The notes beneath the pieces were generated by a model. It ran no database searches. It had not been told where the DNA came from and saw nothing but the letters and a program-made list of their open reading frames with translations. This document shows, in pieces, positions 778 to 19,811 of a DNA stretch of 64,000 nucleotides. Made by a program: the position numbers and the translations under genes. The DNA comes from Sphingobacteriia bacterium (GTDB lineage Bacteria > Bacteroidota > Bacteroidia > Bacteroidales > UBA7960), in the NCBI GenBank assembly GCA_011390785.1, contig JAABRR010000010.1, positions 4,784 through 68,783 on the forward strand, given 5' to 3'. The stretch's first letter is position 1, and every line of letters starts with the position of its first letter.

Positions 778-1004
778 ACTAAATCTGTATTTCGGTATTT
801 AAAGTTCAAAATTACTTAAATTTCACTTAACCCAGTTTTATTGGCCAAATAATATTTAATTTTTACTCTTAATGTTTCAATATCCTTCCTTGTTTTAAGA
901 ATTTATTTCTCCTTAAATAATTTGCAATTCATGGACTATTATTTTTGAAAAATCCATGGTTGCTTATTATTGATGCTTGTGATTTTAATACAAACATGTG
1001 TTTT

Positions 1005-1769
1005 TCAACCTATATTAACCTTTAGTCCATCAAAAGCTAAAAATATGTTTTGTGGTAGATTTTTCTGGACTTCTTCATGTAAACCAATAAAATGACTAAG
1101 ATGTGTTATAAAGGCTTTTACAGGTTTTACTTCGTTAATTACTTCAATAGCTTCACTTAGTGAAAAATGGCTTATATGTTTCGATTTTCTAAGCGCATTA
1201 ATAACCAGAACTTCTGAGCCTAAGAGTTTTTTCTTTTCTTCCGGAGCAATAAAGCTGGCATCAGTAATGTATGAAAAATTACCTACCCTAAATCCAAAAA
1301 CTGATAGTTTATGATGAAACACCTCAATAGGTAAAAACTCTAAATCATGAACCACGAAAAGCTTATTTTCTATAATCTGAAAATTGAGTTGAGGTGCACC
1401 AAAAAAACGTTTTTCGGTAAAAATATAAGGGAACTCTCTTTTTATGGATTCAATAACTTCTTTGCTGGCAAAAACATCTACAGTTTTGTTAAGAACATAA
1501 TTAAACGCTCTTACATCATCTAACCCTGCAATATGATCGCGATGTCCGTGTGTAAAAATAATTGCAGATATATCATCCACCTTCTCTCTAATCATTTGAT
1601 ACCTGAAATCCGGCCCACAATCAATAATAAAGCTTTGACCGTCAATCTCTATCATTACCGAAGTTCTGAGCCTTTTATCCCTTGAATCATTGCTTTTACA
1701 AACATTACAGTCGCATGCCACTACCGGCACTCCTGTAGATGTACCTGTACCCAAAAATGTAACCTTCAT
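1005..1769 (-). CDS. MBL-fold metallo-hydrolase (PhnP-like, with a Cys-rich CDCNVC zinc motif)
   Basis: MKVTFLGTGTSTGVPVVACDCNVCKS...FTHGHRDHIAGLDD (the HxHxDH motif). Start chosen at the internal ATG (1767-1769) by alignment with the paralogue at 44321. The ORF extends to 1841. Confidence 0.8.
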   Translation of the reverse strand: MKVTFLGTGTSTGVPVVACDCNVCKSNDSRDKRLRTSVMIEIDGQSFIIDCGPDFRYQMIREKVDDISAIIFTHGHRDHIAGLDDVRAFNYVLNKTVDVFASKEVIESIKREFPYIFTEKRFFGAPQLNFQIIENKLFVVHDLEFLPIEVFHHKLSVFGFRVGNFSYITDASFIAPEEKKKLLGSEVLVINALRKSKHISHFSLSEAIEVINEVKPVKAFITHLSHFIGLHEEVQKNLPQNIFLAFDGLKVNIG

Positions 1770-1803
1770 TTTAATTGCCTTTGGCATAAGAATGATTTCT
1801 GTA

Positions 1804-2724
1804 TCAATAAATGAGTTCTTCAATATCTTCCCTGGCTTCATTCAATTCATCGGGTACCAGCTGCCCATCAAAAAATATCTCTGCACCTTTAATCTTTTTG
1901 TGAAAAAAAAGCGTCCCTATTTTACCTGTAATATTTACATGTTCATAAATAAGAACGGTATGGATAACTCTTTTAAATTGATCTGTATCAGAAACAATGG
2001 TCATAGATTTTAAGGAATTGCCATTAAGAGATACGTGGGTTGCATAAATACCTGGTGGCGGAATAAGTTTTTCCTCTTCTTCGATATGAATTTTATAACA
2101 AGCTTGGGAAGGAAGTCCGGAAATAGTATCCGGGTTGAAAAAACTGCCTGTGATAATATAGTGGTGGTCGAGATAAGCATTGGCGCGCATTATATTTCCT
2201 TCTGCAAGTGCCTTACGAATTTTTGTTGAGCTAACGGTTTCGTTTTCAATATCTTTAAGAGGAATATCCTCTACCTGAAACTTTAGCTTCTCACTTAACT
2301 CATATAGGTAAGAATAATCGCCGGACCTGTTATAACCAAAATGATGATTTTGGCCAACGATGATAATTTTAGCATTTAATTTATCTATAAGTATATCTGT
2401 AATAAAATCATGTGAGGTGGTTTTCGAAAAATCTACTGAAAAAGGAATGATTACCAGATTTTGTAGTCCTGTTTTAGATAAAAGATCGATTTTTTCTTCC
2501 TGCGAATTAATCAATTTAAGATCTTTCTGCTCTGGGTAAAGCACCTTTCGTGGGTGTGGGTGGAAAGTAACCAGGCACGATTCCCCATTAATTTTTTTTG
2601 CCAACTGATTAAGGCGATCAATGATTATTTTATGACCAATATGAACTCCATCGAAAGACCCTGTTGTTATAACAGCATTTTTCGTAATTCCTTTAGCATC
2701 ATCGGCATTATAAAATACTTCCAT
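1804..2724 (-). CDS. ribF: Bifunctional riboflavin kinase / FMN adenylyltransferase
   Basis: N-terminal GSFDGVHIGH nucleotidyltransferase motif and a C-terminal riboflavin-kinase-like half. ATG at 2722-2724 preferred over the TTG at 2754 used in the track. Confidence 0.88.
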   Translation of the reverse strand: MEVFYNADDAKGITKNAVITTGSFDGVHIGHKIIIDRLNQLAKKINGESCLVTFHPHPRKVLYPEQKDLKLINSQEEKIDLLSKTGLQNLVIIPFSVDFSKTTSHDFITDILIDKLNAKIIIVGQNHHFGYNRSGDYSYLYELSEKLKFQVEDIPLKDIENETVSSTKIRKALAEGNIMRANAYLDHHYIITGSFFNPDTISGLPSQACYKIHIEEEEKLIPPPGIYATHVSLNGNSLKSMTIVSDTDQFKRVIHTVLIYEHVNITGKIGTLFFHKKIKGAEIFFDGQLVPDELNEAREDIEELIY

Positions 2725-2772
2725 CAATAAAAAGGTTTTAAATATTGTAATCAATGCATAAGGAATGCATGT

Positions 2773-3414
2773 TTAATCAATGTCTTGTTTTACAAAGAAA
2801 GCTAGTTTTTCAAGAGAAGTGATAATATCGTATTCTTCAAGATGGATGTTTTCTGGCACAGTTAGGGGAACTGAAGTATAGTTTAGAATCCCTTTTATTC
2901 CGGCATCTATTATCATACGGGCTGCTTCCATAGTGCCCTGCGGCGCAACTGTAAGTATGGCTATTTGAATATTCATTTCTGGCGCAACTTCCTTAATCTT
3001 ATTGATATGATGACAGGGAATCCCGGCTATAATCCTTTTAATTTTTTGGGTATCATTATCAAAAGCGGCTACAATAGACAAACGCTCTCGTTTTCCGGAA
3101 AAGTAGCTTGTGATAGCCCTTCCAAGGTTACCCATTCCTACAACGGCAACATTTAATGGATTCTTACTATCGATAATGCTCCCAATAAGGGTAATGAGAT
3201 CTTTGATAATATAACCCTTGCTCTGGCTACCCGAATATCCTATCAACATTAAATCGCGCCGAACCTGAACAGATGTAAGATTCATCATTTTGGCCAGCTC
3301 GTGCGAATAGATGTTTGTTTTACCCTGATTTATGCTATTAAATAGTATCCGCCGATATTGGCTGAGCCTCTCAATTGTTTTGCCTGGTAAGTCGTTTAAC
3401 TTTTGAATTTCCAT
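2773..3414 (-). CDS. rex: Redox-sensing transcriptional repressor Rex (NADH/NAD+ sensor)
   Basis: 213 aa. N-terminal winged-helix segment (ERLSQYRRIL...LAKMMNLTSVQVRRDL) followed by the Rossmann motif VAVVGMGNLGRA. Length and layout are typical of Rex. Confidence 0.88.
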   Translation of the reverse strand: MEIQKLNDLPGKTIERLSQYRRILFNSINQGKTNIYSHELAKMMNLTSVQVRRDLMLIGYSGSQSKGYIIKDLITLIGSIIDSKNPLNVAVVGMGNLGRAITSYFSGKRERLSIVAAFDNDTQKIKRIIAGIPCHHINKIKEVAPEMNIQIAILTVAPQGTMEAARMIIDAGIKGILNYTSVPLTVPENIHLEEYDIITSLEKLAFFVKQDID

Positions 3415-3437
3415 AAGTATTAAAATAGAATTAGTTT

Positions 3438-4559
3438 TTACTGAGGAGGAAATTTAATGGTAAAAGTGCTTCCCTGATCAGGTTCACTATCTACCTGAAT
3501 TGATGCACCATAAAGATCAGAGATTTTTTTAACGATTGATAATCCTAAGCCTGTACCACTAATATTTTTGGTTTGTTCACTCTTAATTCTTACAAAATCT
3601 TCAAATAATTTTTCGATATCATTTTTTATCATTCCTATGCCGGTATCTGCAACACTGAGAATGGTATTATCATTTTCTTTTTTTACAGTAATATCTATTC
3701 TACCACCGTGCTTATTGTATTTTATAGCATTAGAAACCAGGTTATTAATTATAATATCTAATTCCTGCTTATCGGCCTTCATGGTTATAGTATCGTTGCA
3801 GTTGAGATGTATGTCAATGTCCTTTTGAATACACATTGGCTGCATTGAATCAATAGATTGCCTGGCATTTTCACAGAGGTTAATATTCTTGATGTTTCGA
3901 AGTTTTTTACCTGATTCAATTCTTGTAAAGTCAAGTAAATCAAGGATAAGATTTCTCATTTCCTGCATCCGCGTTAGAGATCTGTTGATCATTTCGGTAT
4001 AATCGCCAACATAATGCCCGTTTCGTTTTTCAAGCATAAGTTTCAAATATCCTTCTACCGCATTAATAGGAGACTTTAATTCGTGCGACAGCACTGAAAG
4101 GAATTGAAACCTGATCTGCTTGCCTTCCTGCTGCATTTTTTGGGTCATTCTTCTAAGAAAAAGTTGCTTGGCTATATTCTCAAGACAATTTCTTAGTTCT
4201 TTGGGAGTAAAAGGTTTTGGAACAAAGTCATAGGCTCCGCTCCTGGTAGCTTTTACAGCCATATCTAAAGATGCATAAGATGTTATCATTACTACTATAA
4301 CATCAATATTTTGTTTTTTGATGTATTCCAAAACTTCTATACCTTGAATTCCTGGTAATTTATTATCCAGCAGAGCAATATCAAACAAATAATTATCGAG
4401 TAATTCAATGGCTTCTTCCCCGCTTTCTGCTTCAAAAACTTCGAAGTCAAAATCTTCATCCATAAAGGGATAACTTACTGAAAAACTTTCCAGTATTCTC
4501 TTTATACCGCTTCTAATGCCCGGCTCATCGTCCACTACCAGCAGGTTGAGTTTTCCCAT
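3438..4559 (-). CDS. Hybrid response-regulator receiver / histidine kinase (REC-HisKA-HATPase)
   Basis: N-terminal REC (LLVVDDEPGIR...IALLDNKLPG...KPF). H-box LSVLSHELKSPINA. C-terminal ATPase G-boxes (DTGIGM, GTGLGLSIV). Confidence 0.85.
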   Translation of the reverse strand: MGKLNLLVVDDEPGIRSGIKRILESFSVSYPFMDEDFDFEVFEAESGEEAIELLDNYLFDIALLDNKLPGIQGIEVLEYIKKQNIDVIVVMITSYASLDMAVKATRSGAYDFVPKPFTPKELRNCLENIAKQLFLRRMTQKMQQEGKQIRFQFLSVLSHELKSPINAVEGYLKLMLEKRNGHYVGDYTEMINRSLTRMQEMRNLILDLLDFTRIESGKKLRNIKNINLCENARQSIDSMQPMCIQKDIDIHLNCNDTITMKADKQELDIIINNLVSNAIKYNKHGGRIDITVKKENDNTILSVADTGIGMIKNDIEKLFEDFVRIKSEQTKNISGTGLGLSIVKKISDLYGASIQVDSEPDQGSTFTIKFPPQ

Positions 4560-4561
4560 TC

Positions 4562-4960
4562 TTACAATTTCAGCAATTTATTTATTTCTTTATGCAGCTG
4601 ATCCATCCTTATGCCTTTATCCAGAAACATATCTGCCTTTATCCATTCCCGATTTTCTTCTGATTCTACATCAAAAAGCAGCCCTGTTTCTGCTGTTACA
4701 GCTGAGGCAATTATTATGGGAACATCTTTATATTTATTTTTAATGATATGACAAATTGTAAAACCTGTATCCTGATTTTCCATCATTAAATCCAAAATGG
4801 CAAGATCGGGTTTCAATTTACCAATAATATCTTCTGCCTCTTTTTGTGTTGTGGCCGTAATTACATCAAACCCCATATCCTGGATGGCAATACTCAGTTG
4901 AAAAAGATAATCAGGATCATCATCAACCAAAAGAATCTTTTTTTTATCAAGTTTAAGCAT
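4562..4960 (-). CDS. Stand-alone response-regulator receiver domain protein with no output domain
   Basis: 132 aa. KKILLVDDDPDYL...LAILDLMM matches the receiver acidic pocket and phospho-acceptor Asp context. There is no DNA-binding or enzymatic domain. Confidence 0.85.
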   Translation of the reverse strand: MLKLDKKKILLVDDDPDYLFQLSIAIQDMGFDVITATTQKEAEDIIGKLKPDLAILDLMMENQDTGFTICHIIKNKYKDVPIIIASAVTAETGLLFDVESEENREWIKADMFLDKGIRMDQLHKEINKLLKL

Positions 4961-4982
4961 ACTATAAATTTTAAATCAGTAA

Positions 4983-7007
4983 TCAAGCGGTTTTTACAAA
5001 ATCTGAAACCCTGGGCAGAGAAACCAGGAAACTTGTTCCTGTTGGTCCTTTAGCTCTATCACTATTCGATTCCACTTTTATGTTTCCTTTGTGCATTTTT
5101 ACAATTCCGTAAATAATGGGCAACCCTAAACCTGTGCCTTTACCATCTTCTTTGGTGGTAAAGAACGGCTCAAACATACGTTCCATATTATCAGACGATA
5201 TACCTGTGCCCGAGTCTTTTATTGTAAATATTAGTTCGTTAGGATTATGAGTGTTATCATTTACTTTTAAAGCAAGCTTTCCTCCACCTGGCATAGCATC
5301 AATGGCATTTTTTATCAGGTTTGAAAACACCTGTACCATTTGATCATGATCACATTCCAAATTCGGATCAAGCGTATTAATTTCGATAGCAAGATCGATG
5401 TTTTGAGGAATAACCAACGCTTTCATACTATTTTTAATGAGCGTTCTAATATTAACCTCATTAAGGTCTACTTTGCTTTTTCGGGCAAAGTTAAGCAATC
5501 CACCCACAATTTTTTTGCATCGGTCTGCCTGATCAACAATTAGTTTGAGATCTTTGTAGTGAGGTGAGTCTGGTTCTATTTCATCCAGTAACAGGTGAGC
5601 ATACATAATAACAACACCCAGAGGATTATTTACCTCATGCGCAATACCTGCGGCCAGTTGTCCCATGGATGCCAGTTTTTCTGATTGTTTTAATGCAGCC
5701 TGAGTAGAAGCCAGTTTTTTATTAGAGATATCAAGATCTTTAATATACTTATGCAGCTTGTCAATAGTATAAGGTAAACACATTTCTGTTTCTGCTATTC
5801 CTTTTAAAATAGCAATTGCATGCTCATGGCAGCTTTCGTATCCGCAGGCTGTACAATTTAATTCATCATCCAGGTTGAAGATACCAAGTTTTTCTTTAAC
5901 CTTTTGAATATCTTCCTCGCTAAAATCAGAAGAAAATCTTTGATCGTCGGCAATAAAATATCTTGTAAGATCAAGGTTTTCAAATTTTTTTATTTCCTGA
6001 AACCATTTTTTTTGGTCTAAGCGGTCAAACTGACGCTTGGCAAAATTGCTGATATTTTTTCTTTTATAAAAAAACTGACTTCGGTTGCTCATTCCAGGTC
6101 CGTTTAAACACCCGTTACAACAAAGCAGATCAAAGAGTTTGGCACCCAGATAACCTTCTTCAAATTCTTTAAGTACTTCTGTAATATCATGCCTTCCTTC
6201 CGCCACAACAATTTCTCCGCTTATAAAGTCTTCCTCCAGATCAACAGTTTGAAGCATACCACCACTTATAGGAAATACTGAACCCTTACCGGCAAGGGGT
6301 GGATCAAATTCTGATGGTTGCACTTCATGCATCAAAATTTTCTTCTCATCAAACATACGTCTTAACTCAATAAAGGATATTACTTCATCTACAAGACCTT
6401 TAAACTGATTTTCTGCTGCTTCTGATTTTTTTGCAATACATGGACCAATAAAAACAATTTTTAAATCAGAGCCATGAATGGATTTTAGCACCTTTGCCGT
6501 GGCTATCATAGGAGAAACCACCTGTACCAAAGATTTTACAACTTGAGGGTGGTGCTTTTCAACATAAGTTACGATTGCCGGACAACTGGTACTGATATAG
6601 GGTTGTTTTTGCTCACTTTGAAGGAGTTTTTTATATCGATTGGCAACCAATTCAGCACCAAAAGCAACTTCATTTACAAAATGAAATCCCAGCGAACGAA
6701 TCATTCCAACCAGTCGCTGATAATCAGGTATATCAATAAATTCTGCCACAAGGCTTGGGGCAACAATCGCTGCAACTTTATCTGAGTTTTCAATTAACTT
6801 TCTTACCTTATCTATGGAAAAGGAAAACATTTTTGCCTGCCTGTTACAAACTTTTACACAATTGCCACAGGCAATACAACGCGAAGCAATTATTTCTGCC
6901 TGTCCATTTACAATTCTAATTGCTTTTGCCGGACACTCGCGTACACAGGTATAGCATACCTTACAACGATCTTTTACAGTATAAACCAGTTGGTTTTTGC
7001 TATCCAT
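4983..7007 (-). CDS. Sensory-type [FeFe]-hydrogenase-like protein fused to a histidine kinase (2x[4Fe-4S] domain, H-cluster domain, Cx2Cx4Cx16C motif, HisKA, HATPase)
   Basis: Ferredoxin motifs CKVCYTCVRECP and CIACGNCVKVC. H-domain motifs are altered relative to HydA: STSCPAIV, GPCIAKKSE, LLCCNGCLNGPG. Also present are CTACGYESC-x16-C, the H-box GIAHEVNNPL and ATPase motifs (DSGTGI, GTGLGL). Confidence 0.85.
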   Translation of the reverse strand: MDSKNQLVYTVKDRCKVCYTCVRECPAKAIRIVNGQAEIIASRCIACGNCVKVCNRQAKMFSFSIDKVRKLIENSDKVAAIVAPSLVAEFIDIPDYQRLVGMIRSLGFHFVNEVAFGAELVANRYKKLLQSEQKQPYISTSCPAIVTYVEKHHPQVVKSLVQVVSPMIATAKVLKSIHGSDLKIVFIGPCIAKKSEAAENQFKGLVDEVISFIELRRMFDEKKILMHEVQPSEFDPPLAGKGSVFPISGGMLQTVDLEEDFISGEIVVAEGRHDITEVLKEFEEGYLGAKLFDLLCCNGCLNGPGMSNRSQFFYKRKNISNFAKRQFDRLDQKKWFQEIKKFENLDLTRYFIADDQRFSSDFSEEDIQKVKEKLGIFNLDDELNCTACGYESCHEHAIAILKGIAETEMCLPYTIDKLHKYIKDLDISNKKLASTQAALKQSEKLASMGQLAAGIAHEVNNPLGVVIMYAHLLLDEIEPDSPHYKDLKLIVDQADRCKKIVGGLLNFARKSKVDLNEVNIRTLIKNSMKALVIPQNIDLAIEINTLDPNLECDHDQMVQVFSNLIKNAIDAMPGGGKLALKVNDNTHNPNELIFTIKDSGTGISSDNMERMFEPFFTTKEDGKGTGLGLPIIYGIVKMHKGNIKVESNSDRAKGPTGTSFLVSLPRVSDFVKTA

Positions 7008-7056
7008 GTTATTTTTAATTTAAAAAATATTGCCAGACAATCTAAAGACTATCATT

Positions 7057-8766
7057 TTATTTTAAAATGTTTCTTTCATGATAATGGGTGTAAAATTCAG
7101 GTGCATTTTCGGGTAAACCAGCCAACAGCGTATATTTTACCAGATCGCTATTCAATCCGGCAACACTGTTGGATATACTCTTCTGAAGATCCTGAGCCAT
7201 TTTCTTCCTGTTTTTCTGCTTATCAGCATAGATCACTATAGGTTGTCCACCACCACCAGCACAACCTCCACTGCAGGCCATTACTTCAACATAGTGTATA
7301 TCTGTTCTTGATTCTTCCTTCAGATGATTAAGATATTTCTGGAATTCCATTATGCCACTTACCCATGCAAAACCATATTCATGCTTACCTATTTTTATTT
7401 TTACTTCTTTGCGGCTACCTGGGTTTTTGGGGACTGTAAATTTAAACCCTTTGTTGTTTTGTCCATTGCTCATAAGATTGATCTGCTGAGCAATTGCTTC
7501 AGCTTTACCCCCAGAAAAAGACATTTGTAAACCTGCGTTAGAGTTATTGTCAAAAGGAGGTTCACATTTTTCCGGATCAATATGATTAATATTTAATCCA
7601 TAACTTCTTAGCATTCTAATGAATTCGCGCACAGTTATTACCGCATCGGTTTCAGAAATACCTCGTGATGTGTTTTCTTCTCGTGAACATTCAAATTTAT
7701 TGGCCACACAGGGCATAAAAGAAACAGTGTAAATATTTTCTCTATTAGCTCCTTCGTTAAATTCATACTTGATTAATCTACCCATTAGTTGCTGGGGCGA
7801 TTTTACACTTGATAAATCAGGTAAAGTGTCTGGTATAAATTTCTCAGCATATTCAACCCATGAAGGGCAACATGAAGAAAATAACGGGCCATGAATATTT
7901 TTTTCGACCCGTTCTTTCAGAAGCCTGGCTTCAAGAATAACATTGAGGTCGTTTGCCAGCGACATATCATATACTTTTGAAAACCCCATTTTTTTTAACG
8001 CGGCAGTAACAATTCCAATAGGGTTATCAGTTTGTTTTAAACCATAATACTCAGCTACAGAAGCAGCAAAACCAGCCGAAATCATAGCTATAGTTGTTTT
8101 TTTGCTGTTATTGATTGCAGATTGCACTTTTTCAATATGTGAAATATCTACCAATGCACCGGTGGGACAAACCATAATACACTGACCGCAATCTATACAG
8201 CTGGAAATGTTAAGACCTTTGTTAAAAGCTGAGTTTACCTTGGTTTTATTACCCTTTGAAATGAATTCCAGAGCGGTAACGAGTTGAATTTCTTCGCAAA
8301 CTCTTACACACCTGTTGCATAAAATACATTTTGCCGGATCGCGATAAACGCTGGAGCTCGAATGATCTCTCTGATCTGAGTTCTTTTTGCTGTAAAACCT
8401 TCTCTCTTTAACATGTAATTCTTCTGCCAGCCATTGCAATTCGCAATTACCATTTCGTTCGCAATACAAACAATCATCCGGGTGGTTTGCCAATAACATT
8501 TCAACTATGGCTTTGCGGGCTTTTATAACCCTGGACGAATTGGTTTTTACGACCATTCCCGGTTCTGCCGGATACGTGCAGGAAGTTACCAGATCGCGTT
8601 TACCTTCAACCTCCACCACGCATAAGCGGCAAGCTCCGGAAGGTGCAAAGTCTTTCATGTGGCACAACGTAGGAATCTTAATCCCTTTACCGCGCATTAT
8701 TGTGAGGAGGGTTTCACCTTCCTGAACATCTATGGGAGCATTATTTACATTGATAGTAAAACTCAT
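7057..8766 (-). CDS. hydA: Catalytic [FeFe] hydrogenase large subunit HydA (2Fe-2S, His-ligated 4Fe-4S, 2x 4Fe-4S and H-cluster; electron-bifurcating HydABC type)
   Basis: All three canonical H-cluster motifs are present: FSSCCPSWVEY, FMPCVANKFE and EVMACSGGCAGGGGQP. N-terminal plant-type 2Fe-2S and NuoG-like HPDDCLYCERNGNCELQ. Two CxxCxxCxxxCP-type motifs. Confidence 0.92.
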   Translation of the reverse strand: MSFTINVNNAPIDVQEGETLLTIMRGKGIKIPTLCHMKDFAPSGACRLCVVEVEGKRDLVTSCTYPAEPGMVVKTNSSRVIKARKAIVEMLLANHPDDCLYCERNGNCELQWLAEELHVKERRFYSKKNSDQRDHSSSSVYRDPAKCILCNRCVRVCEEIQLVTALEFISKGNKTKVNSAFNKGLNISSCIDCGQCIMVCPTGALVDISHIEKVQSAINNSKKTTIAMISAGFAASVAEYYGLKQTDNPIGIVTAALKKMGFSKVYDMSLANDLNVILEARLLKERVEKNIHGPLFSSCCPSWVEYAEKFIPDTLPDLSSVKSPQQLMGRLIKYEFNEGANRENIYTVSFMPCVANKFECSREENTSRGISETDAVITVREFIRMLRSYGLNINHIDPEKCEPPFDNNSNAGLQMSFSGGKAEAIAQQINLMSNGQNNKGFKFTVPKNPGSRKEVKIKIGKHEYGFAWVSGIMEFQKYLNHLKEESRTDIHYVEVMACSGGCAGGGGQPIVIYADKQKNRKKMAQDLQKSISNSVAGLNSDLVKYTLLAGLPENAPEFYTHYHERNILK

Positions 8767-8777
8767 AATATTTTGTT

Positions 8778-10733
8778 TTAATCTACAACAACTGCATTAA
8801 ATTTACAGGCTTCAAAACAGGCATTGCAGGCAATACATTTTTCTTGTACAATAAAGTGGGGCTGCCTTGGCGAACCAATAATTGCATCTACCGGGCATTT
8901 TTTAAAACATGCTGTACAACCGGTACACATATCAACATCAATGCTGTATGTGCGCAATTCACGGCAAACACCTGCAGGGCATTTTCTTTCAAATACGTGA
9001 GCATCAAATTCTGTTTTAAAATTAGAAAGGGTATTTAGGATAGCATTAGGAGCAGATTTACCAAGCGAACAAAGACTTGTATCTTTCATAACTTCGGCCA
9101 AACTCTTTAATTGCATAATTCCTTTAAAGCGTTCCAAAGTTTGAAGGGTGTTTTCCTTAGATGGTTTGCGTGTTGTCGCTTCAATAATTTCAAGCATCAA
9201 AGCAGTTCCTTCACGACATGGTATGCATTTTCCACAACTTTCATTTTTGAAGAAATTGGTGAAAAACTTTGCCAGATCGAGCATACATGTATCTTGTGCA
9301 ACAACTACGCACGCTCCGCTGCCCAGCTGAGACCCTACTGATCTGAGATCATTAAAATCAACCCGGGTATCGAGAGATTTCTCAGTTATATAGCTTCCGC
9401 TGTTAATACCCAGAATAATTGCCTTAAATGGATATTCCCCTTTTATTCCACCCCCAATTTCATCAATTATTTTCCTGAAACTCATTCCCATTTCCACTTC
9501 AATACACCCAAAATTCTTTACTTTGCCACTGAGGGTAAAAAGCTTTGTTCCTTTGCTCGATTCATAACCCAGGCTTTTAAACCATTCTATACCATTTTTG
9601 AGAATAAGTGGAACATTGATTATGGTTTCAAGATTATTAACGCTTGTTGGTTTATTCCATAACCCTTTAACTGCCGGAAAAGGTGGTTTTGATACAGGCA
9701 TAGCTCTTTTACCTTCAATACTGTTTATCAGGGCAGTTTCTTCTCCACAAACAAAGGCACGTGCACCAGCCATTACAATTATATCAATGTTAACCCCCGA
9801 ATCAAAAATATTATGACCTGTTAATCCATAATCTTGCGCTTGCTTAATGGCCCCATTAAGTCTTTCTATAGCCAACGAGAATTCTCCCCTAGTAAAAATA
9901 TAAGCTTTGGAAGCTCCAACTGCATAGGCAGAAATCAGAATTGCTTCAATTAGCCTGTGTGGGTCACTTTCCATTATCACCCTGTTCATGTAACTCCCCG
10001 GATCGCTTTCAACTGCATTGCAAATAAAATATTTCTGATCGCTGCTGGTATTCAGAGATATTTTCCATTTTTTACCAGCAAGAAAAGCTCCTCCGCCCCT
10101 TCCCATTAGCTCACTCTGCTCTACAATGTCGCAAACGTCAGCAGGAGTATGGCCTGCAATGGTATCGGCAAAAGCCTGATATCCTCCGGTGGCAATATAC
10201 TGCGAAATCGAAAGAGGGTCATTGATTCCGCAATTGGATGTCAGTATCTTTTTTTGATGAGAAAAAAAAGGGAGCTCATGAATGTAAGGAACGCCATCCC
10301 AAAACTGGTGTAAATTATTGTAATATTGTCCTAGAAGAAACTTCTCAGGAATGCTGTTATTGAGAATTTCATCAAGAAATGCCGGAACATCATCATGATA
10401 AACGTTTTGAAAAGAAATACGTGCCTTTCCAGGCATCTGTATATCCACAACAGGTTCAGCCTTACAATACCCGTTGCAGCCGCCTTTAATTAGTTCAACA
10501 TCAATTTCATTATCATTTATATAGTGCTTAATAGCCAGATAGGTTTTGGTTGCACCTGCTGCAATTGAACAACTGGTAAGTCCTACATAAATAACAGTTT
10601 TGGAAATACGCTCGCCAGAAATAAAAGAAAGTTCACGGGTAAGATCACTATCTTGATTTCTTTGGAAGTTTCGTAATACTTTTTCCGTTAAAAACTGTTT
10701 TATCTGATCCGAATCATCACTTTTCATATTCAT
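8778..10733 (-). CDS. hydB: HydB, the NuoF-like NADH-binding flavoprotein subunit of the hydrogenase
   Basis: GRGGGAFLAGKKW (FMN/NADH site) and ESCGKCIPCREG (N3-type 4Fe-4S). C-terminal CTGCTACFKKCP and CIACNACFEAC. N-terminal thioredoxin-like 2Fe-2S domain. Overlaps hydC by 17 nt. Confidence 0.9.
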   Translation of the reverse strand: MNMKSDDSDQIKQFLTEKVLRNFQRNQDSDLTRELSFISGERISKTVIYVGLTSCSIAAGATKTYLAIKHYINDNEIDVELIKGGCNGYCKAEPVVDIQMPGKARISFQNVYHDDVPAFLDEILNNSIPEKFLLGQYYNNLHQFWDGVPYIHELPFFSHQKKILTSNCGINDPLSISQYIATGGYQAFADTIAGHTPADVCDIVEQSELMGRGGGAFLAGKKWKISLNTSSDQKYFICNAVESDPGSYMNRVIMESDPHRLIEAILISAYAVGASKAYIFTRGEFSLAIERLNGAIKQAQDYGLTGHNIFDSGVNIDIIVMAGARAFVCGEETALINSIEGKRAMPVSKPPFPAVKGLWNKPTSVNNLETIINVPLILKNGIEWFKSLGYESSKGTKLFTLSGKVKNFGCIEVEMGMSFRKIIDEIGGGIKGEYPFKAIILGINSGSYITEKSLDTRVDFNDLRSVGSQLGSGACVVVAQDTCMLDLAKFFTNFFKNESCGKCIPCREGTALMLEIIEATTRKPSKENTLQTLERFKGIMQLKSLAEVMKDTSLCSLGKSAPNAILNTLSNFKTEFDAHVFERKCPAGVCRELRTYSIDVDMCTGCTACFKKCPVDAIIGSPRQPHFIVQEKCIACNACFEACKFNAVVVD

Positions 10734-11196
10734 TATTCTGGGTTTCCCTTATATGGCTAATAATATTTTTGACCGACTCTATTGTAAGAGCCGTATAATA
10801 CTCTTTGTTAATTTCTAATAAGGGAGCCAAACCACAGGCACCAATGCACGAAACTACTTCAAGGCTAAAAAGGCCAAAGCGATCTGTTTCGCCATTTTTA
10901 ATTTTTAGGGATTTCTCTAATTCGGCTAAAATAGTAGATGCTCCCGCAACATGGCAAGCTGTTCCATGACAAAGCCTTATATGATATCTACCAATAGGCC
11001 CGAAGTGGAAATTATCGTAAAAAGTAGCTACGCCATAAATCTTGTTAACAGAAATATGTAAATAACTACCCACCTCAATAATAATTTCTTCTGACAAAAA
11101 TCCAAACTCTTCCTGAATTTGATGCAACATGGGAATTAAATCATCTCTTTGTTGGTTAGGGAAATGGTCAAAAATATTTGAGAGTCGTTTATCCAT
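10717..11196 (-). CDS. hydC: HydC, the NuoE-like [2Fe-2S] subunit of the hydrogenase
   Basis: 159 aa. LCHGTACHVAG ... VSCIGACGLAPL (Cx4C...Cx3C thioredoxin-like 2Fe-2S motif). Confidence 0.9.
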   Translation of the reverse strand: MDKRLSNIFDHFPNQQRDDLIPMLHQIQEEFGFLSEEIIIEVGSYLHISVNKIYGVATFYDNFHFGPIGRYHIRLCHGTACHVAGASTILAELEKSLKIKNGETDRFGLFSLEVVSCIGACGLAPLLEINKEYYTALTIESVKNIISHIRETQNNEYEK

Positions 11197-11404
11197 GGGT
11201 TAGGTTGATAATTTTTTAACAATATTGAGGAAAGAAAAATTTACATTCCCAAAGTTTTCTTACTATCAGCTATTTAATGGATAAAAAATAACTGACATAA
11301 GGCACAAATATAAGAAAAAAATGATCTCTTAAAGGCTAATTTATTGAATAACAAAATCAAATTGAGCTTAATGTTATTTAGATTAATTTTAAAGAAGGCA
11401 AAAG

Positions 11405-11422
11405 CTGTGAACATATTAGCAA
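11405..11422. promoter_or_regulatory. Candidate Rex operator (imperfect TGTGAA-N4-TTCACA palindrome)
   Basis: cTGTGAAcataTTAGCAa matches 10 of 12 core positions of the Rex box known from Firmicutes and Actinobacteria. It lies in the divergent hydrogenase/sensor intergenic region. Confidence 0.25.
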
Positions 11423-11432
11423 TTAAAAGCAT

Positions 11433-11458
11433 TTTGTAATTGATAATCGTTAAATTTG
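11433..11458 (+). promoter_or_regulatory. Candidate Bacteroidetes-type promoter for the ferredoxin-hydS-phosphatase operon
   Basis: TTTG at 11433-11436 and TAAATTTG (TAnnTTTG) at 11451-11458, about 68 nt upstream of the ATG at 11526. The 14-nt spacer is shorter than the usual spacing of about 18-19 nt. Confidence 0.25.
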
Positions 11459-11525
11459 TTGAATAATTTTTTTCCTTTTAGTGAAATATCTTCTTAATCG
11501 ATTTTTTATCAACATTTTATAGTGC

Positions 11526-11786
11526 ATGACCAATATAATCAGCAACATAACAATTTGCATGGGAAGCAGTTGTTTTTCAAGGGGCAATAAAAAGACTGTT
11601 GCTTTTATCCAAAAATACCTTAAGGACAAGCAACTCAATGATAATGTAACTCTTAAAGGCGCTCACTGTATGGATCAATGCGATAAAGGACCTCTGGTAA
11701 AAATTGATGAAGAGTTGATTTTTCATGCAAATGAACAAATTCTTGAAGCCTATCTCGATAAAAAATTCAACATAAAAACCAAATAA
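11526..11786 (+). CDS. Small thioredoxin-like [2Fe-2S] ferredoxin (HfsA/NuoE-like)
   Basis: 86 aa. ICMGSSCFSRG ... GAHCMDQCDKGPLV gives Cx4C...Cx3C. It sits immediately upstream of the PAS-type sensory hydrogenase. Confidence 0.78.
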   Translation: MTNIISNITICMGSSCFSRGNKKTVAFIQKYLKDKQLNDNVTLKGAHCMDQCDKGPLVKIDEELIFHANEQILEAYLDKKFNIKTK

Positions 11787-11850
11787 GACATGCACCAAGG
11801 CATTAACAAAATTAAATGCCTCCATCAGCATTAACATAGCAACCCATATT

Positions 11851-13707
11851 ATGGAGTTAATATCAATAGACCTCGAAAAATGTAATAGTTCTCATGCGTG
11901 TATTCGTGCCTGCCCTGTAAAAGCTATTACAGTTGAAAGAAAGACCGATCTGCCAGAAATAAATCATAACAGGTGTATTGGTTGCGGCAATTGCCTGAGC
12001 GTATGCCAGGTTGGAGCAGTAACTTACAAATCATCTATAGAAGAAACAATAGATTTAATAAAATCAGAACAAAAAATAGCAGCAATTGTAGACCCCAGTA
12101 TAAGCGGAGAATTTTCAGATATTACTGAGTACAGAAAATTTGTAGAAATGATCAGAATGCTGGGTTTTGATTATGTAAACGAAGTTTCTTTTGGGGTTGA
12201 CCTGGTAGCACTGCAATATAAAAATCTAATTGATAAATTTAAGGGTAAATATTACCTTACATCTAACTGTCCCAGTGTTGTCAGTTATGTTGAAAAATAC
12301 TATCCTGATATAATTAATAACCTAATTCCAATAGTAAATCCAATGACTGCTATGGCTAAGGTTGTTAGACGTCAGTTTGGAAAGAATCTGAAAGTGGTTT
12401 TCATTGGCCCCTGTATTTCTGCTAAATATGAAGCCACACGGCATGTAGGAGATGGAAAAGTAGATTCTGCCCTAACTTTTCAGGAATTAAGGATCATGTT
12501 CAATAAATCACAAATAAAAGAAACCAATGTTGAATTTTCTGATTTTGACCCTCCTATCGGTTATAAGGGTTCTCTTTACCCTTTAAGCAGGGGTATTCTG
12601 GCAGCGGGTGGACTAACGGAAAATCCATTGGTGTCAGATATTTTTACTGCAACCGGCACTGAAAATGTAATGGACGCGGTGCACGAGTTCAGCTTTCGTC
12701 CAGAATCTATTAAAAAGCACTTCAACCTGCTTTTTAATGAAGGATGCCTTATGGGTCCGGGAAACAGTACCAGTAGTAATAAGTTCTTAAGGAAGACCCT
12801 GGTAATTGATTATGCAAGAAAACGATTGGAAAATTTTGATGAAAAAGTATGGAAGGAAAGCATTGAAAATTTTTCTGATTTAGATCTTTCAAGAACATTT
12901 ATTAACGACGACCAACGCAAAGAAATGCCTTCTGAAGACAAAATAGAGGAAATTCTGAAATCAGTTGGTAAATCTTCTGATGAAAAGGGGGCCTGTAGTG
13001 CCTGTGGATTTAGATCTTGCCGCGATTTTGCCATTGCCGTAAGTCAGGGTTTATCAAAATCTGACACATGCCTTACATGGTCGTTGAAAAGTAAGCAGGA
13101 ATACATAAAAACGCTTAAGAATAATAACGATAAGCTTCGCAAGCAGCAACAGGAAAGAGAAGAAAACGAAAGGCTACTCAAAATAGAAAATCAAAAGATA
13201 AGAACCAAATCCGAAACCATCTCTTCTTTGCTTCAAAACTTACCTTCTGCTGCAGTTATTATTGATGAAAAGCTTAAAGTAATAGAGTCTAACAAATCAT
13301 TTATCAATATATTGGGTGATGATGCTACTTTAATTAATGATGTTATACCTGGTTTAATCGGAGCTGATTTAAAAACACTACTGCCATACAATGTTTATAA
13401 TCTTTTTAGTTATGTTTTGCAAAAGGATGAGAATATTATTGGCCGCGATGTAAGTTTTAATGACGGGCTGCTCAACATAAATGTATTTTCTCTAAAACCT
13501 AACAAAATTGTAGGAGCTGTTTTCAGAGATATGTACGTTGCCGAAGTTAGGCAGGAAGAGATAATTAACAGGGTTAGTGAAGTAATTGACGAAAATCTGA
13601 AAATGGTGCAACAAATTGCCTTTTCACTGGGCGAAGGAGCATCAACAACAGAAAAAATGCTCAACTCAATAATTGAAACCTATAAAAAGGTTAAGAAAAC
13701 CGAATAA
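11851..13707 (+). CDS. hydS: Sensory-type [FeFe]-hydrogenase-like protein with a C-terminal PAS domain (HydS/HfsB-like)
   Basis: N-terminal ferredoxin motifs CNSSHACIRACP (second Cys replaced by Ser) and CIGCGNCLSVC. H-domain motifs TSNCPSVV, GPCISAKYE and LLFNEGCLMGPG. CSACGFRSC-x16-C, then a coiled-coil linker and a PAS-like C-terminus. Confidence 0.85.
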   Translation: MELISIDLEKCNSSHACIRACPVKAITVERKTDLPEINHNRCIGCGNCLSVCQVGAVTYKSSIEETIDLIKSEQKIAAIVDPSISGEFSDITEYRKFVEMIRMLGFDYVNEVSFGVDLVALQYKNLIDKFKGKYYLTSNCPSVVSYVEKYYPDIINNLIPIVNPMTAMAKVVRRQFGKNLKVVFIGPCISAKYEATRHVGDGKVDSALTFQELRIMFNKSQIKETNVEFSDFDPPIGYKGSLYPLSRGILAAGGLTENPLVSDIFTATGTENVMDAVHEFSFRPESIKKHFNLLFNEGCLMGPGNSTSSNKFLRKTLVIDYARKRLENFDEKVWKESIENFSDLDLSRTFINDDQRKEMPSEDKIEEILKSVGKSSDEKGACSACGFRSCRDFAIAVSQGLSKSDTCLTWSLKSKQEYIKTLKNNNDKLRKQQQEREENERLLKIENQKIRTKSETISSLLQNLPSAAVIIDEKLKVIESNKSFINILGDDATLINDVIPGLIGADLKTLLPYNVYNLFSYVLQKDENIIGRDVSFNDGLLNINVFSLKPNKIVGAVFRDMYVAEVRQEEIINRVSEVIDENLKMVQQIAFSLGEGASTTEKMLNSIIETYKKVKKTE

Positions 13708-13736
13708 AAACATTCAATACCAATATTGCTAAACCT

Positions 13737-14921
13737 ATGCAAAATCCCTTTTATATAGAAGTAGGTGTATTTCAAAAAAGCCATATTGGTGAACGTATAT
13801 GTGGTGATGTTTTCTTATCTAAAAAAGTAAAGGAAGAAAATCGTACTATTGTTGTTTTATCAGATGGTATGGGTCATGGAGTAAAAGCCAACCTGCTGGC
13901 AACACTAACCGCCACTATGGCTTTAAATTTTACCGTAGAACATAAGGATGTACATAAAATTGCAGAAATAATTATGAATACGCTGCCTGTTTGCAGTGAA
14001 AGGAAAATAAGTTATTCCACCTTTACCATTATAGATATAGAAGATAACGGCCAAACCACTATAATTAATTACGATAATCCCGAGTGTCTTGTTATTCGTG
14101 AGCAGGATGTATTTAAACCCAAATGGCACACAATAACCCTGGAGGCAGGTATTTATGGTGAAAAGGAAATTATGGCATGTACCTTTCAGGCCCAAAAAGA
14201 AGACCGGTTGATTATGCTTACCGATGGAATAACTCAATCCGGATTGGGCAAAGGAACTTACCTACTTGGATATGGCTGGGATAATACCAGAGATTTGATT
14301 GTTCAAAAAATAAAGGAAAAGGAAGATATCTCCGCTTCCAAACTTGCTTCTATAATTGTTGGAAAAGCGCACGCTAACGATAATTATCAATCTAAAGATG
14401 ATATAAGCTCTGTAGTAGTTTATCTTCGCGAACCACGTAAATTATTATTATGCTCTGGACCTCCTTTCGACAAAGATAAAGATGATTATTTAGCTAAAAA
14501 AGTTCACCAATTTTCAGGTAAAAAAATTCTATCTGGTGGCACTACAGTCGATATTATCGCTAAAAAGCTAAATATTAGAGTTGAAGATACCCTGGAATTT
14601 AATGATCCTGACCTACCTCCTATATCCTATATGCAGGGAATTGACCTGGTTACCGAAGGAATTCTTACACTAAGTAAGGTAACTAATATACTTGAAAATT
14701 ATAATGAAAGAACAGAACTCTCCAATGGGCCTGCAGATCAGATTATTAAACTGCTGCTCGAAAGCGATGAAATTGTTCTTTGCATTGGAACAGCTATAAA
14801 CGTTGCCCATCAGGATCCGAACCTACCTGTTGAACTGGAAATTCGACGTAGCGTTGCCAAAAAACTCACTGCCCTGTTAGAAGAAAAATTTCTTAAGGAA
14901 GTTACTCTGCAGTTTATTTAA
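13737..14921 (+). CDS. SpoIIE/PP2C-family serine phosphatase with an uncharacterised C-terminal domain of about 160 aa
   Basis: ICGDVF...VVLSDGMGHGVKANLLA...LIMLTDGI matches SpoIIE/PP2C metal-binding motifs. I do not recognise residues from about 235 to 394. Confidence 0.78.
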   Translation: MQNPFYIEVGVFQKSHIGERICGDVFLSKKVKEENRTIVVLSDGMGHGVKANLLATLTATMALNFTVEHKDVHKIAEIIMNTLPVCSERKISYSTFTIIDIEDNGQTTIINYDNPECLVIREQDVFKPKWHTITLEAGIYGEKEIMACTFQAQKEDRLIMLTDGITQSGLGKGTYLLGYGWDNTRDLIVQKIKEKEDISASKLASIIVGKAHANDNYQSKDDISSVVVYLREPRKLLLCSGPPFDKDKDDYLAKKVHQFSGKKILSGGTTVDIIAKKLNIRVEDTLEFNDPDLPPISYMQGIDLVTEGILTLSKVTNILENYNERTELSNGPADQIIKLLLESDEIVLCIGTAINVAHQDPNLPVELEIRRSVAKKLTALLEEKFLKEVTLQFI

Positions 14922-15229
14922 ACTCTGTCCACAATGCAGTCATATCAGAAGGATTTTATCTTAAAATTGAATATTGATTTCTTTAACAGCCTAAATTTCA
15001 GTTTTCTGATTTTAGGCCTACTTATTGCATAAGTGATAGCGGATTAATTTTTTGATTTAATACTTAAATGCTATTATAATCGATAAATAATATATATTTA
15101 AATACAAATAAGTTGTTTTTTTAGAAATAACCTATCTAATTGGGCAAACAACATAGATTGTTAATAAAAATAAACTAATTTATAATTTTATTATTAAGCT
15201 GATAATCAACATAAACCAGAGTATTGAAC

Positions 15230-15274
15230 GGTAAATGGTAAAAAAAATACTATTTACCAGCTATTTTCTTCTTT
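15230..15274 (+). terminator. Terminator-like hairpin in a gene-free region
   Basis: GGTAAATGGTA-A7-TACTATTTACC forms an 11-bp stem with one G-U pair, followed by the T-rich agctattttcttcttt. It lies about 310 nt after the phosphatase stop and about 145 nt before the next start. Confidence 0.35.
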
Positions 15275-15402
15275 GAAAGTCATTTTTTATTTATAAATTT
15301 GTGCTGTTCATGATAATTAAAAAAATTAATCAACAAAATCCGACAACACAAACACTTAAATTAGCAATTCGTGAGCTAATTTCGAAAATTTAAAAAAATT
15401 AA

Positions 15403-17784: not shown

Positions 17785-17845
17785 ATATTATAATATAGTA
17801 TTTTGGTTTTTTCAAAGCAGACTCAATCCATAAAGTTGTAATTTT

Positions 17846-17878
17846 GGCCTTTATTGTAATTTACTAAAGGCCTTTTTT
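17846..17878 (+). terminator. Rho-independent terminator directly abutting the ribD start codon
   Basis: GGCCTTTA-11 nt loop-TAAAGGCC (perfect 8-bp stem) followed by T6. The ribD ATG begins at 17880. Confidence 0.6.
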
Positions 17879-17879
17879 A

Positions 17880-18935: not shown

Positions 18936-18946
18936 AAATATTCGTT

Positions 18947-19801: not shown

Positions 19802-19811
19802 TTGTTATAAT

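Follow-up and report, generated by a model that had tools for sequence, protein, structure and literature searches.

A HydABC-Type [FeFe]-Hydrogenase Cluster of Bacteroidales That May Encode Its Own Regulators

Gene Content and Conservation of the Cluster

The stretch of DNA analysed here (the window) comprises 64,000 nucleotides (nt) from a Sphingobacteriia bacterium of the order Bacteroidales (contig JAABRR010000010.1 of assembly GCA_011390785.1, positions 4,784 to 68,783 of the forward strand). Near its left end lies a gene cluster for a predicted HydABC-type [FeFe]-hydrogenase, two hydrogenase-like putative sensors and the redox-sensing repressor Rex. An earlier note on this DNA, made from the letters of the sequence, had described the same gene array, and its description is borne out: the open reading frames (ORFs) of a six-frame list agree with it in strand, coordinates, order and spacing, and the divergent intergenic region between hydC and the ferredoxin gene is 329 nt long, as compared with the 330 bp claimed. 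The domains that it named agree with Pfam and NCBIfam, with the exception of a PAS domain whose support is structural. In window positions, and with the Pfam assignments that define them, the genes are as follows.

1 to 777, minus strand: hydG, H-cluster radical-SAM maturase; the N-terminal 259 amino acids (aa), the rest lying beyond the left window edge
1005 to 1841, minus strand: metallo-beta-lactamase (MBL)-fold hydrolase (Lactamase_B_2, E=1e-31), a neighbour conserved among loci
1804 to 2754, minus strand: ribF, FAD synthetase/riboflavin kinase (FAD_syn, E=7e-47)
2773 to 3414, minus strand: rex, NADH/NAD+ redox-sensing transcriptional repressor (Put_DNA-bind_N and CoA_binding)
3438 to 4559, minus strand: REC::HK, 373 aa, an N-terminal receiver followed by HisKA and HATPase_c
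4562 to 4960, minus strand: REC-only response regulator, 132 aa, without an output domain (Response_reg)
4983 to 7007, minus strand: HydS::HK, 674 aa, a sensor H-domain joined to a histidine kinase
7057 to 8766, minus strand: hydA, H-cluster subunit of a HydABC-type (group A3-like) [FeFe]-hydrogenase
8778 to 10733, minus strand: hydB, NuoF-like FMN/NADH subunit with extra Fe-S domains (Complex1_51K, NADH_4Fe-4S and Fer4)
10717 to 11196, minus strand: hydC, NuoE-like [2Fe-2S] subunit (2Fe-2S_thioredx, E=7e-48)
11526 to 11786, plus strand: small thioredoxin-like [2Fe-2S] ferredoxin (fdx), 86 aa, the gene in the HfsA position (2Fe-2S_thioredx)
11851 to 13707, plus strand: HydS-PAS, 618 aa, the second sensor H-domain protein (Fer4, H-domain and PF04060; PAS by structural model)
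13737 to 14921, plus strand: PP2C/SpoIIE-type Ser/Thr phosphatase, 394 aa (SpoIIE, E=3e-18)

The genes from hydC to ribF form a minus-strand array with inter-gene gaps of -17 to +49 nt, and a consensus scan found no terminator-like site in any gap of that array. The true start of ribF is probably a Met codon 10 codons into the ORF. NCBIfam places HydB in nuoF_fam (E=5e-129) and has a family of the DVU0259/DivK type as its top match for the REC-only protein. The small ferredoxin corresponds to the C-terminal half of 2Fe-2S_thioredx (E=1e-8) and is conserved upstream of the PAS sensor among loci. The presence of hydG at the window edge, also reported in the earlier note, is confirmed by the radical-SAM motif CTNNCQYC and by TIGR03955 (HydG) as top NCBIfam family (E=8e-72).

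One genome per species was scanned for relatives of the cluster, which yielded at least 393 confirmed HydS::HK relatives, and the best 80 loci were annotated against the window proteins. For HydS::HK itself, over 100 database clusters share 53-100% identity, and most of them come from metagenome-assembled genomes of Bacteroidales. The genes hydCBA lie directly upstream of HydS::HK in 61 of 65 assessable loci, drawn from at least four phyla, and the REC and REC::HK genes adjoin the sensor kinase gene in 66 of 71. The placement of rex differs between groups: it follows the relay genes in 40 loci (39 from Bacteroidota) and precedes hydC in 13, all from outside Bacteroidota (Planctomycetota, Hydrogenedentota and others). 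The full layout, in which the ferredoxin, PAS sensor and phosphatase genes diverge from hydCBA, the sensor kinase, REC, REC::HK and rex, is found in 27 loci, down to ∼50% protein identity, and the order rex, ribF, MBL hydrolase and hydG beyond the relay genes is conserved in most Bacteroidota loci. The set includes two Hydrogenedentota loci (L039 and L062) with sensors 51-52% identical, and a locus of Tenuifilaceae (L070) in which the dual-sensor layout is complete. The arrangement is thus strongly conserved, and the worry that it might be a one-off, raised in the earlier note, can be set aside.

Several loci depart from these patterns. L013, labelled Omnitrophica WOR_2, is the sole locus with a label from outside Bacteroidota to show the full dual-sensor layout; it encodes proteins that resemble those of the window as closely as do the proteins of Bacteroidetes loci such as L015, which suggests an error of binning or labelling rather than spread across phyla. 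A third type of Bacteroidales cluster (L016, 4683-5732, plus strand; L020, L027, L049 and L079) has neither rex nor the PAS module, carries two extra REC-only genes upstream of hydC, and has hydG, hydF and hydE directly after REC::HK. In a few Planctomycetota loci an unrelated Cache-kinase/NtrC pair lies upstream: in L061 (222-3602, minus strand), and likewise in L019, L042 and L053, the genes directly upstream of hydC are divergent from it and encode a histidine kinase with sCache and HAMP domains and a sigma54 response regulator of the NtrC type. The occurrence of ribF, a flavin-cofactor gene, beside an FMN-dependent hydrogenase may be more than chance.

The Hydrogenase and Its Two Sensor-Type Paralogues

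From the domains and residues of its products, hydCBA is predicted to encode a HydABC-type, NADH- and ferredoxin-linked, bifurcating-type [FeFe]-hydrogenase. HydA has the Pfam architecture Fer2, NADH-G 4Fe-4S, two Fer4 and H-domain, which is the full bifurcating-type N-terminus with its Fe-S motifs, the closest solved structure is that of HydA1, an electron-bifurcating hydrogenase subunit from Thermoanaerobacter kivui (8a6t, E=7e-123), and the NuoF-like and NuoE-like subunits are encoded alongside. The three H-domains of the cluster were mapped to the numbering of Clostridium pasteurianum CpI, with the CpI sequence reconstructed from PDB alignments. On this mapping HydA retains the four cluster cysteines C300, C355, C499 and C503, the relay Cys C299, and both M353 and M497. 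The claim that HydA keeps all three catalytic motifs therefore stands for the cluster cysteines and C299, but the second motif, MPCVANKFE, has Asn in place of the Lys (K358) of the canonical MPCxxKxxE. Indeed, none of the canonical second-sphere residues P231, K358 and E282 is found in HydA, which departs at these second-sphere and proton-path positions (K358N, P231A and E282L) and has Met at F417. K358 makes contact with a cyanide ligand. Among 72 HydA sequences the K358N change is common to those of the window, L001 and L002 alone. Of the large proteins of the cluster HydA is the least conserved, at 68% identity to its L001 counterpart, as compared with 81% for the sensor kinase and 86% for Rex.

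Variation at the cysteines of HydA is seen in other loci. In Planctomycetota and Hydrogenedentota, the HydA encoded beside the sensor kinase has the motif TSCSPGW, with Ser at the CpI-C300 position (L011, L018, L019, L021, L038-L041, L044, L046 and L052-L062 among others), and many HydA proteins of Bacteroidota have SSDCP, with Asp at the relay Cys299. Cys/Ser variation in HydA is mentioned in PMC11406978.

The other two H-domain proteins, HydS::HK and HydS-PAS, are 36% identical to each other over 519 aa (E=3e-113), and each is ∼24% identical to HydA. Both have lost the relay Cys C299 (to Ser in HydS::HK and to Asn in HydS-PAS), carry Gly for M353, contain two N-terminal [4Fe-4S] motifs and possess the accessory-cluster motif Cx2Cx4Cx16C, which is present in all orthologues examined as well, and the proton-path residues are absent from both. 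This is the group C signature as described by Land et al. (PMC8163306). Neither protein has a catalytic signature, in agreement with the earlier note, which took the two for sensor-type paralogues. Its assignment of them to two classes, C1 and C3, is not supported. The HydDB subgroups C1, C2 and C3 are sequence-similarity-network clusters named after the linked regulators (PMC5037454), and the published HydDB result for cluster-linked sensors of both the PAS type and the kinase-domain type ("BfuT") is C3 (Yang et al. 2024, PMC11406978); the window sensors, moreover, are close paralogues.

HydS::HK is composed, in order, of the two [4Fe-4S] motifs, the sensor-type H-domain, the Cx2Cx4Cx16C cluster (PF04060), a coiled coil and a HisKA-HATPase_c kinase, the kinase standing where the PAS domain sits in HydS-PAS. 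It has the substitutions C299S, M353G and M497L, and its third motif is LFDLLCCNGC. All four cubane cysteines are present, and they are kept in 80 of 80 loci and in 118 of 120 database clusters. The kinase is NtrB/ZraS-like (best PDB match ZraS, 9jfj, E=5e-33; NCBIfam AtoS/ZraS), and its H-box HEVNNPL and its N, G1 and G2 boxes, the set of motifs of a two-component histidine kinase, are invariant across 12 diverse orthologues.

HydS-PAS has a similar order of Fer4 motifs, sensor-type H-domain, Cx2Cx4Cx16C and coiled coil, followed by a PAS fold and a C-terminal helix. The sensor-type substitutions and accessory motif claimed for both paralogues are present in it (C299N, M353G and, further, K358A), but it also lacks one cubane Cys: the third motif reads HFNLLFNEGC, with Asn at the equivalent of C499. 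Among the 120 nearest HydS-PAS clusters this residue is Asp in 43, Asn in 36, His in 36, Ser in 3 and Cys in 1, the remaining cluster not fitting the search pattern. Over the sensor family more widely, sampled by 130 diverse representatives, Cys accounts for at least 90% at that position. Furthermore, in the first ferredoxin motif, CxxSxxCxxxCP, the second Cys is Ser in 115 of the 120. More distant HydS-PAS orthologues retain both cysteines. These residues suggest that HydS-PAS may not hold a normal H-cluster, although Asp and His are able to ligate [4Fe-4S] clusters, so that the loss of Cys is not proof of cluster loss.

The PAS domain named in the earlier note escapes Pfam, where the best match is below threshold (E=0.004), and a precomputed PAS hit is found in 0 of the 120 nearest clusters. 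The AlphaFold model of residues 421-618, however, contains a long coiled coil, a five-stranded PAS-type domain with pLDDT confidence of 80-92, and a C-terminal helix. In a Foldseek search with this model, the top 50 listed matches are all PAS or PAS-containing proteins (Aer2, FixL, PYP and CitA), with probability 1.0 and E values down to 7e-6. The predicted fold and its matches therefore support the assignment on structural grounds.

The phosphatase encoded after HydS-PAS has conserved DGMGHG and DD metal-binding motifs in its orthologues. Its C-terminal 165 aa (14418-14918, plus strand) form a conserved alpha/beta domain, modelled with a pLDDT of 89.5, with the invariant motifs GGTT, AHQDPNLP and ELEIRR. 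This domain belongs to no Pfam family and gave no significant fold match in the PDB (best E=3.7e-3, TM score 0.33).

The sensor core (residues 1-430) was searched against 1.84 billion cluster representatives, which gave 998 matches at E≤1e-30. Of the best 150 representatives (P0361-P0510; 50% clusters), 130 are full-length proteins, and their Pfam domains show that HisKA is joined to the core in 40, a sigma54-interaction AAA+ domain in 16, 12 of which also have a Fis-type helix-turn-helix (HTH), and PAS in at least 33. Judged by these fusions, the Fe-S/H-domain/4-Cys module is a portable input that is coupled to signalling outputs of three kinds, which is strong indirect support for a sensory rather than a catalytic role. 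A fusion of the core to a sigma54 AAA+ domain would be a one-component, hydrogenase-like enhancer-binding protein. No solved HydS structure is available and no HydS-like chain occurs among the PDB matches, the nearest H-domain match being Thermotoga maritima HydA.

The eight closest relatives of HydS-PAS beyond its own clade are all kinase-fused. In a neighbour-joining tree of a subset, the HydS-PAS clade is nested among the kinase-fused sensors with bootstrap support of 66-68%, apart from the non-kinase sensors of ∼560-600 aa, which we take to be the classical PAS type; the tree of the full subset is unstable. The placement of HydS-PAS within the kinase-fused clade is therefore suggestive only.

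Rex and the Intergenic Regulatory DNA

Rex is recognised by NCBIfam NF003995 (198 bits, as compared with a cutoff of 126) and consists of a winged-helix N-domain and a Rossmann NAD(H) domain. A consensus scan for Rex sites in the window alone gave 9 matches, where 8.75 were expected, and became informative once orthologous regions were compared. In the aligned hydC-ferredoxin intergenic regions of nine species, the pattern ATTGTKAA-N5-T-N2-CA-N-C is invariant (the window copy is TTGTTAAAAAATTATCAA), and this Rex-like block ends 8-15 nt before the hydC start codon. By this comparison a conserved Rex-like operator precedes hydC. The predicted regulatory features of the intergenic region are the following.

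11204 to 11223, minus strand: predicted Rex-like operator ATTGTTAAAAAATTATCAAC, separated from the hydC start codon by 8 nt
11305 to 11312, minus strand: candidate -7 promoter box of the Bacteroidetes type, TATATTTG when read toward hydC, within a conserved TTATATTTGT block of the aligned intergenic regions
11366 to 11386, minus strand: conserved 21-nt block TTAATCTAAATAACATTAAGC between both divergent promoters, seen in the aligned intergenic regions
11404 to 11423, minus strand: second, weaker Rex-like box ATTGCTAATATGTTCACAGC, with one mismatch to the derived pattern and partly conserved in relatives
11451 to 11458, plus strand: candidate -7 promoter box TAAATTTG of the divergent unit (fdx, hydS and pp2c); orthologous regions have the reverse complement of ACAAAAATAAGG in the corresponding position

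The predicted box at 11204-11223 is a palindromic operator of the TTGTGAA-N4-TTCACAA type near a candidate target promoter. It is similar to the sites TTGTTAA-N4-TTAACAA predicted for Rex of T. saccharolyticum, which include sites before hfsABCD and hydG (PMC5886521). With up to 2 mismatches, 27 of 65 loci have Rex-like boxes ahead of hydC or rex, as compared with 0.84 ± 0.93 in composition-matched shuffles; since the loci are related to one another, these 27 are not independent events. The boxes often occur as tandem pairs, 17 nt apart. A third Rex-like half-site near the fdx start, at 11501-11516, was rejected, as it is not conserved in relatives.

The consensus for the -7 element of Bacteroidetes promoters is TAnnTTTG. 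A scan for sigma70-type promoters gave a count no higher than that in shuffles, though such a scan is ill-suited to Bacteroidota promoters. The 21-nt block is near-identical in the window and in L001, L002, L003 and L008, and is recognisable in L006, L009 and L045. An Rfam search of window positions 1-20000 gave no match.

A Possible Control Circuit, Its Rivals and Known Systems

We lean, if only slightly, toward a model in which this HydABC-type hydrogenase cluster encodes its own regulators, namely Rex, an H2-sensing kinase relay and a phosphatase branch. Rex would bind its operator at low NADH/NAD+ and let go when NADH accumulates, such that the hydrogenase and its regulators would be made when reducing equivalents need disposal as H2. 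HydS::HK would hold a slow H-cluster that has no proton relay, and its H2-dependent reduction would pass via the accessory clusters to the C-terminal [4Fe-4S] site. As this site stands directly before the coiled coil and the phospho-acceptor helix, its reduction could change autophosphorylation, with phosphate then flowing to the single-domain REC protein, to the receiver of REC::HK, or to both, in a multi-step relay. The ferredoxin/HydS-PAS/PP2C unit, which is collinear with hfsABC of Thermoanaerobacterium, would be a second branch that acts through a Ser/Thr phosphatase. Because one cubane Cys and one ferredoxin-motif Cys have been lost, HydS-PAS more likely reports the redox state of Fe-S clusters or ferredoxin than H2.

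A number of observations weigh against this model. The catalytic competence of HydA is not certain because of K358N, P231A and E282L, and in HydS-PAS one cubane ligand position, which is Cys in at least 90% of the family, is taken by Asn. The Rex-like box lies ∼80 nt downstream of the candidate promoter and just 8 nt from the start codon, and its right half is degenerate (TTATCAA as compared with TTCACAA). Because the kinase is NtrB/ZraS-like, a sigma54 promoter was sought upstream of hydC, and none was found in 66 loci with the scan threshold as set. No response regulator with a DNA-binding output domain is encoded within the cluster, either in the window or in the 80 loci, apart from the unrelated Cache-kinase/NtrC pair of a few Planctomycetota. 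It may be, then, that the relay has its effect at other places in the genome or through protein-protein contacts, on a final target that would be encoded outside the cluster or reached by such contact. Finally, we infer all four of H2 binding, phosphotransfer, Rex binding and co-transcription from sequence and synteny.

A competing explanation is that the sensors report redox poise, that is, reduced ferredoxin or the state of the Fe-S clusters, rather than H2, with the H-domain a degenerate scaffold and the ferredoxin-fed accessory [4Fe-4S] clusters the input. It is most plausible for the PAS paralogue, in which the C499 ligand is replaced by Asp, Asn, His or Ser in 118 of the 120 nearest clusters, a ferredoxin-motif Cys is Ser in nearly all, the K358 position is Ala, and a dedicated 2Fe-2S ferredoxin gene precedes the sensor gene. 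Even there, however, the capacity of Asp and His to serve as ligands and the intact cysteines of distant orthologues speak for caution, and the four cubane cysteines of HydS::HK, which are nearly invariant, and the linkage of hydG to the cluster count against this reading. A study of Hydrogenedentota did find no H-cluster motifs in its group C1 proteins, but these are a set other than the cluster-linked sensors (PMC11406978). On balance we think redox poise a possible but doubtful account. The relay and phosphatase might also steer other pathways, such as fermentation end-product genes, leaving Rex alone to act on the hydrogenase operon. Such a division would fit a cluster that has no output domain or DNA-binding regulator except Rex, the conserved intergenic motifs other than the Rex-like boxes, which have no assigned binder, and the finding that deletion of hfsA or hfsB in Thermoanaerobacterium raised adhE transcripts and ethanol yield (PMC5707799). 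Against it stands the tight linkage of HydS::HK to hydA in 61 of 65 loci and at least four phyla, which most simply indicates a functional tie to the HydABC enzyme, together with the conserved 21-nt block between the two divergent promoters; we regard steering of other pathways as improbable, though by no means far-fetched. The earlier note had all inputs converging on one hydrogenase, which is still something that we can at most infer, given that the cluster has no output domain except that of Rex and that the homologous HfsB of Thermoanaerobacterium affects adhE expression (PMC5707799).

The HydS-like proteins could instead be extra catalytic or structural subunits of the hydrogenase, the "T subunit" of BfuABC, and not regulators at all. 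The gene is indeed named bfuT within the BfuABC cluster (PMC11406978), and the related putative sensor TamHydS is still able to interconvert H+ and H2 in vitro (PMC8163306). We nevertheless consider a subunit role very unlikely, as both proteins lack the proton-relay Cys and the residues of the proton path, the sensor core recurs in fusions with histidine kinases, with sigma54 activators that carry an HTH and with PAS domains, receivers and a phosphatase are conserved neighbours, and the solved HydABC complexes have no such subunit. A more specific version of the regulatory model, which we offer as speculation and hold to be rather unlikely in its entirety, is that the PAS paralogue arose in Bacteroidota by duplication of a kinase-fused sensor and then, in the clade of the window, lost a cubane Cys and a ferredoxin-motif Cys to become a ferredoxin/redox sensor that drives PP2C. 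HydS::HK would then sense H2 and feed an output-less His-Asp relay (REC and REC::HK) that acts by protein contact on Rex, HydABC or the phosphatase branch, and not via a DNA-binding regulator, and the two sensors would not be redundant H2 inputs.

To our knowledge, all that is known of H2 sensing in fermenting anaerobes comes from Thermoanaerobacterium genetics and from spectroscopic work on one or two isolated sensor proteins. A sensor fused to a histidine kinase offers a read-out that is measurable in vitro, namely autophosphorylation under H2 as compared with inert gas, and, as the cluster occurs in cultured Bacteroidota, the hypothesis that group C proteins sense H2 is directly testable. 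The cluster further illustrates a way in which the sensing of NADH, by Rex, and of H2 may jointly set the moment at which cells dispose of reducing equivalents as H2, and that choice bears on hydrogen transfer between species in sediments, digesters and guts.

The cluster is real, conserved and biochemically uncharacterised, and it is a further member of a type already on record. A 2024 study (PMC11406978) described hydCBA-sensor::kinase clusters as "sub-type V" BfuABC, shared with Caldithrix, treated the sensor gene (bfuT) as part of the BfuABC cluster, and reported two sensor genes, the second one upstream, in the cultured Bacteroidota Perlabentimonas gracilis, Tenuifilum thalassicum and Williamwhitmania taraxaci. 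In Caldithrix abyssi, Cabys_3675-3679 (rex-hydCBA and one further gene) had been described in 2017 as an operon under the control of Rex, and a candidate Rex box was reported for it (PMC5317091). The statement in the earlier note that the kinase-fused class is known only from surveys, and the novelty for Bacteroidota that it implied, are accordingly superseded. The window shares with these clusters the order hydC-hydB-hydA followed by sensor::kinase, and the linkage of rex. The REC and REC::HK partners and the PP2C phosphatase are not mentioned in either paper, however, rex is absent from the text of PMC11406978, and the Bacteroidota loci differ in having rex downstream of the relay genes rather than upstream of hydC, as does the window clade in the lost Fe-S ligands of its PAS paralogue. 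The present analysis adds that the REC and REC::HK partners are conserved, that Bacteroidota have a Rex-like operator, that metal ligands of the PAS paralogue are eroded, that HydA has unusual residues, and that the wider sensor family includes fusions to sigma54 activators.

Among known proteins, the putative sensory hydrogenase HydS of T. maritima (group C, M2f; PMC8163306) shares with the window sensors the two [4Fe-4S] motifs, an H-domain without the relay Cys and with M353 changed to Gly, the Cx2Cx4Cx16C motif, a PAS domain (predicted by structural model in one of the window paralogues) and HydABC genes as neighbours. It differs in that one window paralogue has a complete histidine kinase in place of PAS and the PAS paralogue is without one cubane Cys; M497 is Leu here and Ser in TmHydS. 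The nearest relatives of window HydS-PAS in the rough tree described above are, furthermore, the kinase-fused sensors. The HoxBC-HoxJ-HoxA system of Cupriavidus necator (PMC5707799) is alike in principle, as a slow hydrogenase controls a histidine kinase that governs hydrogenase expression, but it is an [NiFe] system with an unrelated metal site and family, its sensor and kinase are separate, and its NtrC-type regulator has a DNA-binding output that the window cluster lacks.

The closest parallel to the divergent unit is hfsABCD of Thermoanaerobacterium, together with the HydS/PP2C/Rex model of Ruminococcus albus (PMC5707799, PMC11837493, PMC5886521), in which a small Fe-S protein, a PAS sensor and PP2C are collinear and predicted Rex sites precede the hfs operon; the likeness is one of gene order and domains. 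A regulatory role of hfsA-hfsB-hfsC is genetically supported (PMC5707799), and HfsD is a hydrogenase, not a kinase (PMC5707799, PMC11837493). In the window, in another phylum, no monomeric hydrogenase of the HfsD/HydA2 type follows the phosphatase gene, the unit diverges from hydCBA instead, and no Ser/Thr kinase gene is nearby. The phosphatase gene is followed by a 481-nt gap, which holds a terminator-like hairpin recognised by pattern match alone in a consensus scan, and then by an unrelated gene, as listed below.

15230 to 15258, plus strand: terminator-like hairpin after the fdx-hydS-pp2c unit
15403 to 17784, plus strand: membrane hybrid kinase (PAS, HisKA, HATPase_c, REC and Hpt)

The hybrid kinase is probably unconnected with the cluster because it is weakly and partially matched in relatives. 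No STAS proteins, anti-sigma kinases or other partner-switching genes, which would be possible PP2C substrates, are among the scanned window genes outside the cluster; these are housekeeping genes, such as ribD, lgt, FKBP isomerases, glycosyltransferases, purK and dapA. The gene dnaA (22596-24038, plus strand) lies ∼8 kb away from the cluster.

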